64,000 nt of DNA from Spirochaetia bacterium (GCA_965198005.1 CBDAOI010000004.1:2126763-2190762); one strand, 5' to 3'; shown: positions 50,328 to 53,795, counted from the stretch's first letter. Numbers and translations: made by a program. The notes: generated by a model from the sequence alone, not told the origin.

Positions 50328-53300
50328 ATGAAGCTGGTCGCCGATCTTCACCTCCACTCCCACTATTCCCGCGCCACCAGCCGAGACCTGACGCTCGAGC
50401 ATCTGTGGAAGTGGGCGCAGCTCAAGGGCGTGCAGGTGGTGGCCACCGGCGACATCGCCCATCCTGGCTGGCTGGCCGAGCTGCGCGACAAGCTGGAGCC
50501 GGCCGAAGCGGGACTGTTTCGGCTCAAGCCGGAGCATACGGCCGGCGTGGTCGACCAAGTGCCGGCGGCGTGCCGGGGGACCGTGCGCTTCCTGATCGGC
50601 GGCGAGCTCAGCAGCATCTACAAGAGGCACGACCGCACCCGCAAGGTGCACAACATCGTGTTCTCCCCGTCGTTCGAGGCCACCGCGCGGCTGCAGCAGG
50701 AGCTGGAGAAGATCGGCAACATCCGCTCCGACGGGCGCCCGATCCTGGGTCTGGACAGCCGCGACCTGCTGGAGATCGTGCTCCAGGTGGACCCCCGCTG
50801 CCACCTGATCCCGGCCCACGTCTGGACTCCCTGGTTCTCGATGCTCGGCTCGAAGTCGGGGTTCGACTCGGCGCAGGAGTGCTTCGCCGACCTGACGCCG
50901 CACCTCTTCGCGGTGGAGACCGGTCTCTCCTCGGACCCGCCGATGAACTGGCGCGTCTCCTGGCTGGACGACTACACGCTGATCTCCAGCTCCGACGCCC
51001 ACTCGCCGCAGAAGCTGGCGCGGGAGGCGACCCGGTTCGACACCGAGCTGAGCTATGACGCGCTGTTCGACGCGTTGCGCAGCGGCGATCGGGCGCGCTA
51101 CCACGGCACCATCGAGTTCTTCCCCGAGGAAGGCAAGTACCACCTGGACGGCCACCGCAAGTGTGGCGTCTGCTGGAAGCCGGTGACCACGCGCGCCCAC
51201 GGCGGACGCTGCTCCGCCTGCGGCAAGCCGGTGACGGTGGGCGTCTACCACCGGATGGAGGAGCTGGCCGACCGCCCGCGCGGCGCGCGCCCCGCCTGCG
51301 CCGGCCCGTTCGCCAGCCTCGTCCCGCTGCCGGAGGCGCTGGCCGAGATGCTCGGCGTCGGTCCCAACTCCAAGCGGGTCCAGGGCGAGTACCTGCGCCT
51401 GCTGGAGCGGTTGGGACCGGAGTTGGCCATTCTGCAGGACCTGCCGCTGGAGGAGATCGCCGCGGCCGGGGACCCGGTGCTGGTCGAGGGCATCCGTCGG
51501 ATGCGTGCCGGCGAGGTGCGTGCGCAAGGCGGCTACGACGGCGAATACGGAGTGATCCGCCTGTTCGACGGCGCCACCGACCGGTCGTCGGTGGTACAGC
51601 TCGGCATGTTCGGCGAGCTCGCGGGCGAGCCGGCGGCGGGAGCGATACCGGCCGCGCAGCCCCGCGCGGCCCCCGCCGCGGACGCGGTGATGGAGCGGGA
51701 CGTGCCGTACCAGGTTCGGCGCAACGAGGGCTCAGCAGCGCCGCAGCCGTCGGTTGCCACCGACTCCGACCCGACCCCGGGCGCGGCAGAGGCGGAAGCC
51801 GTACCTCCCGCGATCGGCGCGGCGCACGCCACCGGCGACGCAGCACCGGAGAGCGCCGCGCCCCGCAGCGCTGCGGCAACCGCGGCGCTTCCCGCACATC
51901 CGTCCGCATGGCTGGCCGGCCTCAACCCGGCGCAGCGCGAGGCGGCAACCCACACCGGCGGTCCGCTGGCGATCGTCGCCGGACCGGGCACCGGCAAGAC
52001 CCGTACGCTGACGGTACGCATTGGCCATCTGGTTCGGGGGCTCGGCGTGCCGCCGGCGTCGATTCTGGCGCTGACGTTCACCAACAAGGCGGCGGACGAA
52101 CTGCGCGCGCGCCTGAGCGAGCTGCTGGGAGCCGAGCAGGCGGCACCGATCACCGCCGGCACCTTCCATCAATTGGGCGCGCACCTGCTGCGGGAGTTTG
52201 CGGTTGCGGCCGGGGCCCCGCGCGGGTTCGCCGTATTCGACGAAGCCGACCGCAGGCTGCTGCTGAAGCAGAGCTGTCCGGAGCTGTCCGGCGGCGAGCT
52301 GCGGGCGGCGCTGGAGGCGATCTCGGCGGACAAGAATGGCCCGACGCCGGAAGCTGCGGGCGACCGGCCGGCCTCCCCCGTCGCCTTGCGGAGAGATGGC
52401 GTACCCAACGTGGCGACGCTCCGTGCCCGCTATGATGGCGCCCTCGCCGAGGCCGGCGGTCTGGACCTGGACGACCTGGTCGGCCGCAGCGTGCGCCTGC
52501 TGGAGACCGATCCGGTGGTGCGGCGGACGCTGCAGGCGCGCTTCCGCTGGATCTCGGTGGACGAATACCAGGACGTGAACGCCGCCCAGTACCGCCTGTT
52601 GCGCCTCCTGGCGGGCGGCGGCGCCAACGTGTGCGTGATCGGCGACCCCGACCAGGCGATCTACGGCTTCCGCGGGGCCGATCACCGCTACTTCATCGCC
52701 TTCGGCGACGACTTCCCGGACGCGCGCCGGCTTCACCTGGACCGCAACTACCGCTCGGCCCAGGGGATCCTGACCGCCGCCGGGCAGGTGATCGCGCGCA
52801 ACACCGACCATCGGGCGCCGGCCCTGATCGCCGACGTCGCCGCCCGCGTGAAGCTGGACGTGTACCGTGCGCCCACCGACCGGGCCGAGGCGGAGTACGT
52901 GGTGCACCAGGTGGAGCGGATGGTGGGCGGCACCAGCTACTTTTCCCTCGACTCGGGCCGGGTGGAGGACGACGGGCTGTCCGAGACCCACGCGTTCGGC
53001 GACTTCGCCGTCCTCTACCGCCTCAACGCTCAGGCGAGATTGCTGGAGGAGGCGTTCGACCGCTCCGGCATCCCCTACCAGTCCACCGGCGGCAGCGCGG
53101 CGGCGGAGCAGCAGCCACCGGTGCGCGAGATTCTCTCGCTGCTGTGGCTGACGCAGGTACCGGCCAGCCGGATCCACTGCTGGCGGATCCTGTCGGAGGG
53201 GTCCGGCGCGCCCACCGAACCGGCGGTCGAGGAACTGGTGAGGCGGCTTTCGGCCGCCGCCGGTTCCGCCCCCGTCGCAGAGCTGGTCCGGGCCGCGGCG

Positions 53301-53795
53301 GAAGGCTGGGCCGAGCTGCGCGGCCGCGCCTATGACGCCGGCGAATTGGAGCGGGTCGCCCGCCTGCAGCGCCGCGCCGATGCGGCCGGCACCGGCCTGT
53401 GCGACTTTCTCACCGCCGTCGCCCTGCACGGCGAGACCGACCGCTACGACGAGCGCGCGGACCGGGTGGCACTGATGAGCCTGCACGCGGCGAAGGGGCT
53501 GGAGTTTCCGGTGGTGTTCATCGTCGGCTGCGAGGAGGGTCTGCTCCCCTACCTGCCGCCCAACCGCACAGCCGATCCGGCCGAAGAGCGCCGGCTGTTC
53601 TACGTCGGCATGACCCGCGCCCGGCGCCGGCTGATCCTGACCCACGCCGGCCGCCGCCTCCTGTTCGGCCGGACCGTCGAGAATCCCCTCTCCCGCTTCG
53701 TCACCGACATCGAGTCCGCGCTCCGCGAGCTGCACCGGGCACCCCACCCCCCACGCCGCCCGACCGCCGAAGACCTCCAGCTCCCCCTGTTCTGA
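50328..53795 (+). CDS. fusion protein: EndoQ-like PHP-domain nuclease with zinc ribbon (N-terminal ~400 aa) + Ala/Pro-rich linker + UvrD/PcrA-type SF1 DNA helicase (C-terminal ~640 aa)
   Basis: PHP motif MKLVADLHLHSHYSRATS. Zinc ribbon CGVCWKPV...CSACGKPV. Helicase motifs AGPGTGKT, DEYQD, VCVIGDPDQAIYGFRGAD, NYRS, LMSLHAAKGLEFPVVFIVG and FYVGMTRARRRL. The whole 1155 aa is one uninterrupted frame with uniform GC3. Confidence 0.8.
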   Translation: MKLVADLHLHSHYSRATSRDLTLEHLWKWAQLKGVQVVATGDIAHPGWLAELRDKLEPAEAGLFRLKPEHTAGVVDQVPAACRGTVRFLIGGELSSIYKRHDRTRKVHNIVFSPSFEATARLQQELEKIGNIRSDGRPILGLDSRDLLEIVLQVDPRCHLIPAHVWTPWFSMLGSKSGFDSAQECFADLTPHLFAVETGLSSDPPMNWRVSWLDDYTLISSSDAHSPQKLAREATRFDTELSYDALFDALRSGDRARYHGTIEFFPEEGKYHLDGHRKCGVCWKPVTTRAHGGRCSACGKPVTVGVYHRMEELADRPRGARPACAGPFASLVPLPEALAEMLGVGPNSKRVQGEYLRLLERLGPELAILQDLPLEEIAAAGDPVLVEGIRRMRAGEVRAQGGYDGEYGVIRLFDGATDRSSVVQLGMFGELAGEPAAGAIPAAQPRAAPAADAVMERDVPYQVRRNEGSAAPQPSVATDSDPTPGAAEAEAVPPAIGAAHATGDAAPESAAPRSAAATAALPAHPSAWLAGLNPAQREAATHTGGPLAIVAGPGTGKTRTLTVRIGHLVRGLGVPPASILALTFTNKAADELRARLSELLGAEQAAPITAGTFHQLGAHLLREFAVAAGAPRGFAVFDEADRRLLLKQSCPELSGGELRAALEAISADKNGPTPEAAGDRPASPVALRRDGVPNVATLRARYDGALAEAGGLDLDDLVGRSVRLLETDPVVRRTLQARFRWISVDEYQDVNAAQYRLLRLLAGGGANVCVIGDPDQAIYGFRGADHRYFIAFGDDFPDARRLHLDRNYRSAQGILTAAGQVIARNTDHRAPALIADVAARVKLDVYRAPTDRAEAEYVVHQVERMVGGTSYFSLDSGRVEDDGLSETHAFGDFAVLYRLNAQARLLEEAFDRSGIPYQSTGGSAAAEQQPPVREILSLLWLTQVPASRIHCWRILSEGSGAPTEPAVEELVRRLSAAAGSAPVAELVRAAAEGWAELRGRAYDAGELERVARLQRRADAAGTGLCDFLTAVALHGETDRYDERADRVALMSLHAAKGLEFPVVFIVGCEEGLLPYLPPNRTADPAEERRLFYVGMTRARRRLILTHAGRRLLFGRTVENPLSRFVTDIESALRELHRAPHPPRRPTAEDLQLPLF

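Follow-up and report, generated by a model that had tools for sequence, protein, structure and literature searches.

A long-form bacterial EndoQ homologue with an EndoQ-type nuclease module, a UvrD-type helicase and a putative clamp-binding tail in one polypeptide

Background

The 64,000-nucleotide stretch of DNA analysed here (Spirochaetia bacterium, GCA_965198005.1, CBDAOI010000004.1:2126763-2190762), referred to throughout as the window, carries on its plus strand at 50328-53795 a gene for a long-form bacterial homologue of the DNA repair nuclease EndoQ. The predicted modules of the protein are, in order, an EndoQ module, a linker, a UvrD-type helicase and a clamp-binding tail. The gene is a further member of a large family that is annotated in databases (MJ0043_C plus UvrD) and already listed in the literature, and the architecture is not new. 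We think it rather probable that long-form EndoQ acts in DNA repair as a self-contained enzyme of the incise-and-unwind type, docked on the beta sliding clamp.

EndoQ nicks DNA 5' of uracil, hypoxanthine, xanthine and apurinic/apyrimidinic (AP) sites, and the 2015 model of the EndoQ pathway invoked an unidentified helicase (PMC4357722). The Pyrococcus furiosus enzyme (PfuEndoQ) remains on its nicked product (PMC5961232). Archaeal EndoQ binds PCNA through a C-terminal PCNA-interacting peptide (PIP) box and its activity is stimulated by this (Shiraishi 2016, PMC4858679); bacterial homologues were likewise noted to end in beta-clamp motifs (PMC4858679). Reviews describe EndoQ as an archaeal enzyme that is also present in "a few bacteria" (PMC8307549). 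The EndoQ enzymes that have been assayed are short forms, from archaea and from Bacillus pumilus.

Results

The gene begins with an ATG and encodes 1155 amino acids (aa) in an uninterrupted open reading frame (ORF). Third-position guanine-plus-cytosine (GC) content is 0.82-0.98 in one frame over the entire ORF, through both domains and the linker, and the GC of the gene (0.68-0.76) is at the level of the surrounding DNA. An independent ENA assembly, a 211-kb contig (locus L001), encodes an identical protein; the two genes differ at 4 of 3468 nt, all of which are therefore synonymous. Among the best 120 matches from a database search with the full protein, lengths range from 993 to 1527 aa, most matches cover 100% of the query at 56-78% identity, and several come from complete chromosomes. 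The identical L001 protein, the continuous third-position GC and the more than 100 full-length homologues exclude a frameshift or misassembly, and the gene is a real single ORF encoding one polypeptide.

A preliminary description of this DNA, made from the sequence alone, had proposed just such a single-polypeptide nuclease-helicase fusion with native GC content, and had named a frameshift or assembly error at the linker as what would undo it. The fusion and the native GC both stand, and the error was checked for and is excluded by the L001 protein, the third-position GC and the homologues. Every peptide motif that it quoted is found in the ORF: HLHSHYS at residue 8, CGVCW at 279, CSACG at 295, GPGTGKT at 552, DEYQD at 745, GDPDQAIYGFRGAD at 772, NYRS at 807, HAAKGLEF at 1053 and VGMTRAR at 1093.

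The EndoQ module occupies residues 1-415 and has three parts. By alignment with PfuEndoQ, the PHP catalytic domain covers residues 1-265 (50328-51122) and the zinc-binding domain, with a conserved K270-Y271-H272, covers residues ~266-330 (51123-51317). The C-terminal helical domain, placed by the same alignment and the structural model, covers residues ~331-415 (51318-51572) and has a GYDGEYG hairpin at its end. The module matches TIGR00375, the EndoQ family of NCBIfam, from end to end (model positions 2-374 of 374, E 1.7e-41), and the protein has a precomputed match to Pfam PF27218, MJ0043_C. When the PDB was searched with this module, the sole matches were PfuEndoQ structures (E 9e-46 with the single sequence; E 1e-67 with a 10-sequence profile, aligning PfuEndoQ residues 5-382), at an identity of ~30%. 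The AlphaFold model of residues 1-415 has a predicted local distance difference test (pLDDT) score of 87.6 and a predicted template modelling (pTM) score of 0.89. In Foldseek it superposes on PfuEndoQ (5zb8) over all three subdomains, with template modelling (TM) scores of 0.84/0.87 and a root-mean-square deviation of 2.7 A, and the next-best matches are generic PHP phosphoesterases at TM <=0.36.

The residue roles and mutational map of PfuEndoQ come from Miyazono 2018 (PMC5961232). Its two zincs are held by H8, H10, E76, H84, H139 and D193, and R114 and H195 are also essential (PMC5961232). All of these metal and catalytic residues have counterparts here: H8, H10, E93 (E76 in PfuEndoQ), H108 (H84), R137 (R114), H164 (H139), D223 (D193) and H225 (H195). 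The base pocket G199-L200-S201 corresponds to G169-L170-S171 of PfuEndoQ and lies beside H164; in the archaeal enzyme the pocket residues and H139 are required for cleavage at hypoxanthine and dispensable for cleavage at AP sites (PMC5961232). W169, K270-Y271 and Y407 are further matched to W144, K243-Y244 and Y377. In an alignment of 341 relatives the metal, catalytic and base-pocket residues are 100% conserved, and every residue that is essential to PfuEndoQ activity by mutation (PMC5961232) is invariant; at the W169 position 326 have W and 15 have H. Two family-specific insertions relative to PfuEndoQ, at residues ~67-83 and 96-102, lie in the PHP domain. Because the residues are 100% conserved and the fold matches, we take the module to be a catalytically intact EndoQ, with predicted activity, and not a generic PHP enzyme. 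The EndoQ-type N-terminal region that was originally proposed is thus confirmed by the family model, the PfuEndoQ profile match and the fold. A generic PHP phosphoesterase identity was considered and rejected on the difference in TM scores and the residue conservation.

The zinc site is not of the kind first described, a CxxC...CxxC ribbon. The zinc ligands C249/C252/C268/C271 of PfuEndoQ align with H276/C279/C295/C298. Of the 341 relatives, 338 have His and 3 have Cys at position 276; C279, C295 and C298 are essentially invariant, and C282 is Cys in only 175. Since the former four positions are conserved and C282 is not, a plausible ligand set is H276/C279/C295/C298, a predicted metal site of H-C-C-C type. 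Within residues 276-298 (51153-51221) the near-invariant His276 stands where archaeal EndoQ has Cys249, and C282 imitates a CxxC.

The linker extends over residues ~416-528 (51573-51911). It is rich in Ala and Pro, as was first noted (33% Ala and 15% Pro over residues ~429-528), and is predicted to be disordered, with AlphaFold pLDDT <35 at residues 420-521. Between the GYDGEYG motif and Walker A, family members have 53-360 aa (median 104); the linker has no conserved columns in family alignments and is hypervariable in both length and sequence. On the basis of the model it is a flexible tether.

The helicase core follows at residues 529-1141 (51912-53750), delimited by Pfam, NCBIfam and PDB profile matches. 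Its motifs are the Q motif (Q536), Walker A (552-558), DEYQD (745-749), motif III (772-785), NYRS (807-810), motif V (1053-1060) and motif VI (1093-1099), and in 51 homologues all of the motif residues are invariant. The Pfam models UvrD-helicase (full model, E 2.6e-66) and UvrD_C (E 2.3e-40) both match. The closest structure is Mycobacterium tuberculosis UvrD1 (9dci, E 5.6e-93), followed by Deinococcus radiodurans UvrD (4c2u) and PcrA (1pjr); these best matches have E values from 6e-93 to 1e-91. The helicase half of a full-length AlphaFold model is confident (pLDDT 80-96). As judged from these motifs, profiles and structures, the C-terminal half is a complete superfamily 1A (SF1A) helicase of UvrD/PcrA type with the 1A/1B/2A/2B layout, and the complete motif set that had been reported is borne out.

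Two features set this helicase apart. The 2B region is shorter than in UvrD1 and is poorly conserved. The C-terminal Tudor-like RNA-polymerase-binding domain of PcrA/UvrD is absent; the alignment with UvrD1 stops at residue 689 of 771. The AddA/RecB models match the helicase core only, at 95-117 bits against cutoffs of ~700-860.

Beyond the helicase core is a variable tail of about 14-20 residues that terminates in QLPLF (residues 1151-1155; 53778-53792), a putative beta sliding-clamp-binding motif with the consensus QL[SD]LF. Among 320 long homologues, 230 have Q[LM]xL[FL] within their last 12 residues, where shuffles that preserve composition give a mean of 0.33. By analogy we infer that QLPLF docks the protein on the beta clamp.

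How widespread is this arrangement? The N-domain was searched against 1.84 billion cluster representatives (clusters at 50% identity). It matched 3739 clusters at E <=1e-3 and 1087 at E <=1e-30, and the nearest 150 clusters are almost all 1000-1370 aa long, the length of the fused form. A genome scan with the N-domain, using one genome per species, gave at least 600 matching genomes in more than 15 phyla. EndoQ-like proteins are therefore not limited to archaea and a few Bacillales, as the preliminary description had it. From these genomes the best 80 loci were taken, of which 72 have complete ORFs. They come from Chloroflexota (Caldilineaceae), Myxococcota (Sorangium), Desulfobacterota (Desulfonema), Actinomycetota (Actinoallomurus, Streptomonospora, Kutzneria, Saccharopolyspora), Planctomycetota, Gemmatimonadota, Acidobacteriota, Bacteroidota, Verrucomicrobiota, Alphaproteobacteria, Latescibacterota, KSB1, Omnitrophota, Elusimicrobia and others.

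A search for the same architecture in these other genomes was successful. Walker A and DE[YF]QD are present in one polypeptide with the N-domain in 54 of the 72 complete ORFs, and a few more long ORFs have one of the two strings. The clamp-type C-terminal motif is likewise found in 54 of the 72, with fused, split and stand-alone forms pooled. In 7 of the 80 loci (L016, L034, L037, L039, L042, L057 and L071) the two halves are split: an EndoQ-like gene of ~428 aa is directly followed by a UvrD-like gene of 483-662 aa, whose product is a homologue of the window protein's helicase half and lacks the 2B region. Both split proteins have a Q[LM]xLF tail in L016, L039 and L042, and only the helicase has it in L037. 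This suggests that the split partners may each dock on the beta clamp independently. The pairs lie at 8001-10907 in L016, 3112-5863 in L039, 2219-5007 in L042 and 4731-7462 in L037, with helicases of ~483-507 aa. L060 and L064 have stand-alone EndoQ-like genes.

In a rough neighbour-joining tree of the N-domain, the split and stand-alone forms are scattered among the fused forms, and the window protein clusters with Caldilineaceae/Caldilinea sequences. The partnership is thus kept whether or not the halves are covalently joined, and this conserved partnership is the strongest evidence that the nuclease and the helicase would act in one pathway.

The long form had in fact been catalogued before. 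Supplementary Figure S1 of Shiraishi 2016 (Sci Rep 6:25532; PMC4858679) lists 44 bacterial "EndoQ homologs" with a clamp motif, 10 of them 405-464 aa and 34 of them 945-1244 aa in length. The long forms include Caldilinea aerophila WP_014432234 (1134 aa, QLGLF), Sorangium cellulosum WP_012236160 and Zymomonas mobilis WP_011241259, together with proteins from Saccharopolyspora, Rhodothermus, Geobacter metallireducens and Desulfovibrio vulgaris (PMC4858679). With these 34 long homologues on record, the combination cannot be called unrecognised or novel, as it had been on first description. The word "helicase" is absent from that paper (PMC4858679). According to Miyazono 2018 (PMC5961232), Shiraishi 2017 split EndoQ into three families "based on the domain organization"; on that account, one of its two bacterial families probably includes the long forms of 2016. 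In the accessible literature on EndoQ, TIGR00375 and MJ0043, a scope that leaves Shiraishi 2017 outside, we found no discussion of the helicase fusion.

The gene is separated by 177 bp from a divergent neighbour on the minus strand, a gene for a thiamine pyrophosphate (TPP)-dependent enzyme (48420-50150). In this intergenic region a sigma-70-like promoter match, TAGACT-18-CATAAT, lies on the plus strand at 50256-50285, 43 nt before the ATG (1 site against 0.2 expected; a match to the consensus only). A perfect 8-nt inverted repeat, GGTAAACC-N15-GGTTTACC, at 50204-50234 is unique in the window at 0 mismatches and may act as operator to one or the other of the two divergent genes. A second inverted repeat lies at 50299-50332. 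The 50204-50234 repeat was not found upstream of the orthologues in L002, L003, L005, L006 and L007, and neither the promoter-like site nor either repeat is conserved in other species. The divergent promoter region with inverted repeats that was first reported is therefore present, but it is species-specific.

An upstream LexA-type box had been suggested as a sign of damage induction. No GAAC-N4-GTTC box was found near the gene or in the intergenic region, and motifs of the PafBC/RDRM type were not part of the search. SOS control by LexA was rejected for the lack of this box near the gene, the inverted repeat being species-specific. Elsewhere in the window GAAC-N4-GTTC occurs 5 times (19364, 20386, 30830, 38187 and 56936) against 0.64 expected, a number reached in 0 of 100 shuffles. 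The sites at 19364 and 20386 are within the coordinates of an 846-aa ORF, and that at 56936 is within a Na+/H+ exchanger ORF.

No conserved neighbours were found in an all-against-all BLAST of the flanking ORFs, in which even the most frequent flanking family was limited to 6 or fewer of the 80 loci. Upstream of the gene the window and L001 differ at 2 of 2000 nt; downstream their similarity ends abruptly ~130 bp past the stop codon. Here the window has a strain-variable island of low GC (0.56-0.60) at 53925-55950. It holds, on the minus strand, a gene for a 446-aa AAA_21/SMC_N ATPase (54577-55917; best PADLOC matches PDC-M07A, E 2e-65, and HEC-01A) and a 188-aa ORF without a family match (54014-54580) that overlaps the ATPase gene. 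In its place L001 has, at 13600-16640, ORFs for an HSDR_N protein and for AAA_21/AAA_15 ATPases. This shows that the two strains diverged very recently, with replacement of the island, which adjoins the gene and is not part of it. The site resembles an integration hotspot of defence islands.

The host is a Caldilineae-like (Chloroflexota) bacterium, and the gene is an ordinary part of its chromosome. The gene's closest relatives come from metagenome-assembled genomes (MAGs) labelled 'Spirochaetia/Spirochaetaceae bacterium': L006 (OZ253572.1), with 87% identity over the N-domain, and protein P0032, with 88% identity over 37% of the query in the best local alignment. L006 falls inside Caldilineaceae/Caldilinea in the N-domain tree and has a locus GC of ~67%; the taxonomic labels of the MAGs may be wrong.

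Discussion

What follows the EndoQ cut? If long-form EndoQ is an incise-and-unwind repair enzyme, as we propose, its action would take the following course. The QLPLF peptide would tether the protein to beta clamps on DNA, as its motif and the precedent of archaeal EndoQ and PCNA suggest. The EndoQ module would then flip a deaminated base (uracil, hypoxanthine or xanthine) or an AP site into the G-L-S/His pocket, and the zinc centre of the PHP domain would cut the phosphodiester bond immediately 5' of the lesion, an activity predicted from the conserved residues. At the nick the 3'-5' helicase, held on a linker of ~100 aa, could load and unwind the lesion-bearing strand, strip off the product-bound nuclease, or both, by analogy with UvrD after UvrABC or MutH/MutL nicks. 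UvrD is the model for such a step: it loads where UvrABC or MutH has nicked the DNA and takes away the damaged strand. Resynthesis and ligation would then be possible through a polymerase and a flap nuclease.

The preliminary description had likewise suggested that incision would be coupled to unwinding. This is the natural reading of the protein, and it is reinforced by the relatives that have both halves as adjacent genes. The gene also has the signs of a housekeeping function: native GC and codon bias, strain differences that are synonymous only, and no conserved neighbour from defence or any other system.

Several points weigh against this proposal. The module scores 142.9 bits with TIGR00375, below the curated equivalog cutoff of 326.6, and the helicase scores 436.6 bits with the PcrA model, below its cutoff of 911.2; the UvrD (347.9 against 1144) and Rep (370.1 against 951) equivalog models are missed too. 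By these curated cutoffs the helicase is not an orthologue of PcrA, UvrD or Rep. With both the TIGR00375 and the PcrA cutoffs missed, the protein would form a distinct subfamily, possibly with a different range of substrates. The first zinc ligand is His where the archaeal enzyme has Cys. The full-length AlphaFold model, built from a shallow alignment of 51 sequences (pTM 0.49), has a low-confidence N-terminal half and holds no information on contacts between the modules. A 3'-5' helicase can remove the lesion strand only if it loads on the intact one, and the order of events and the strand on which the helicase loads are pure inference. The gene lies beside a strain-variable, defence-like island. 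We found no biochemical or genetic data on any long-form member in the literature.

A different role for the helicase is as a motor that serves the nuclease, driving ATP-dependent scanning (of single-stranded DNA or of new DNA behind the clamp, for example) or ejecting the product-bound nuclease for turnover. The flexible linker of 53-360 aa would suit a tethered cargo, and the 2B subdomain is short in this helicase and absent from those of the split operons. In Rep and UvrD, loss of 2B goes together with higher motor activity of the monomer. This role would also agree with PfuEndoQ being effectively single-turnover and held on its nicked product (PMC5961232), and with the efficient cutting of deoxyuridine and deoxyinosine in single-stranded DNA by EndoQ (PMC11354406). 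However, lesion cuts in single-stranded DNA at replication forks would make breaks. Nothing separates such a motor from a helicase that unwinds after the nick, and both may hold together; as the explanation of the fusion we regard the motor as rather unlikely.

It is improbable that the protein is an anti-phage nuclease-helicase which attacks foreign DNA containing uracil or other non-canonical bases, in the manner of single-protein immunity by Nhi or the helicase half of Gabija. The helicase part does match the PADLOC models GajB and RTasHel (E 1e-79), the gene adjoins the low-GC island with candidate defence ATPases of the AAA_21/AAA_15 families in both the window and the sister strain, and a review mentions a possible antiviral role of Bacillus EndoQ (PMC8307549). 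However, the GajB matches reflect generic UvrD similarity, as the PcrA model scores higher (436 bits). No GajA-like or other partner is conserved among the 80 loci, in which shared neighbour families are rare. GC and codon usage are those of the host, the protein is identical in both strains though the island differs, and a C-terminal beta-clamp motif is typical of replication and repair proteins. Membership of Gabija or another defence system was examined and rejected, the PADLOC matches being explained by generic UvrD similarity. In Gabija, GajB is in an operon with GajA, an ATPase-TOPRIM protein of the OLD family; the sole ATPase gene nearby (54577-55917) is convergent with the gene described here, belongs to the strain-variable island and is PDC-M07A/HEC-01A-like.

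Less probable still is an N-terminal module that acts as a generic PHP phosphoesterase, such as a 3'-end-cleaning or AP-only nuclease, with no specificity for base lesions. The TIGR00375 score under the curated cutoff, the ~30% identity to PfuEndoQ, the two insertions in the PHP domain and the changed zinc ligand would fit such an enzyme, but the module matches the whole three-domain EndoQ architecture far better than any other PHP fold (TM 0.84-0.87 against <=0.36), and the pocket residues G199-L200-S201 and H164 are 100% conserved. That two adjacent genes were merged by a frameshift or misassembly can be dismissed for practical purposes: the low-complexity, GC-rich linker is of a type prone to indel errors and a few relatives in MAG contigs appear to be split by frameshifts (L061 and L047), but the artefact is ruled out by the identical protein of the independent assembly, the unbroken third-position GC periodicity in one frame, the more than 100 full-length homologues, some on complete chromosomes, and the at least 54 fused ORFs in other species.

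More tentatively than the incise-and-unwind proposal itself, we suggest that bacteria may use EndoQ mainly in its long form, rather than as the stand-alone enzyme that has been studied to date. The long form would work as one clamp-docked protein or as a two-gene operon, nicking deaminated and abasic sites and supplying the helicase step of EndoQ repair, and in the operon each half would be recruited to the clamp through its own QLxLF. EndoQ-like proteins form a large bacterial clade that extends over many phyla; they are usually fused or operon-linked to a helicase and have a beta-clamp motif. If the suggestion is right, it would give a concrete and testable answer to the question of what comes after the cut. 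The breadth of the clade, the helicase linkage and the clamp motif together point to a possible clamp-associated nick-and-unwind pathway for the repair of uracil, hypoxanthine and AP sites in such bacteria as Zymomonas, Geobacter, Desulfovibrio, Sorangium and actinomycetes. For the window the practical outcome is a confident annotation rather than a discovery, and the architecture leads to a specific prediction on EndoQ-initiated bacterial repair that can be put to the test.

Among known systems, the helicase half has the motifs and the 1A/1B/2A/2B layout of UvrD, PcrA and Rep (Escherichia coli UvrD, M. tuberculosis UvrD1, Geobacillus stearothermophilus PcrA). Unlike these, the window protein has a short and variable 2B, a nuclease of its own and a clamp-type tail, and no Tudor domain. 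AddA/RecB and Gabija (GajA with GajB) resemble it in the physical coupling of a nuclease to a UvrD-like motor. In AddA/RecB, however, that nuclease is a C-terminal PD-(D/E)XK enzyme of end resection, whereas here it is predicted to be a lesion-specific N-terminal PHP/EndoQ nickase; the window protein has no nuclease domain beyond the helicase core and no AddB/RecC/RecD partner. In contrast to Gabija, its nuclease is not of the OLD/TOPRIM kind and it has no GajA partner.

Archaeal EndoQ (PF1551 of P. furiosus and TK0887 of Thermococcus kodakarensis; PDB 5zb8 and 7k30) and the short EndoQ of B. pumilus are the same three-domain nuclease. The archaeal enzymes share the catalytic, metal and base-pocket residues and a sliding-clamp peptide at the C-terminus (a PIP box in archaea, QLxLF here). 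The window protein differs from them in its ~30% identity, its His as first zinc ligand and its two short PHP insertions, and in the disordered linker and UvrD-type helicase of ~610 aa that are added before the clamp motif. The long forms of Shiraishi 2016 (PMC4858679) are alike in their length of ~950-1250 aa, their N-terminal EndoQ domain and their QLxLF, and nothing essential sets the window protein apart from them.

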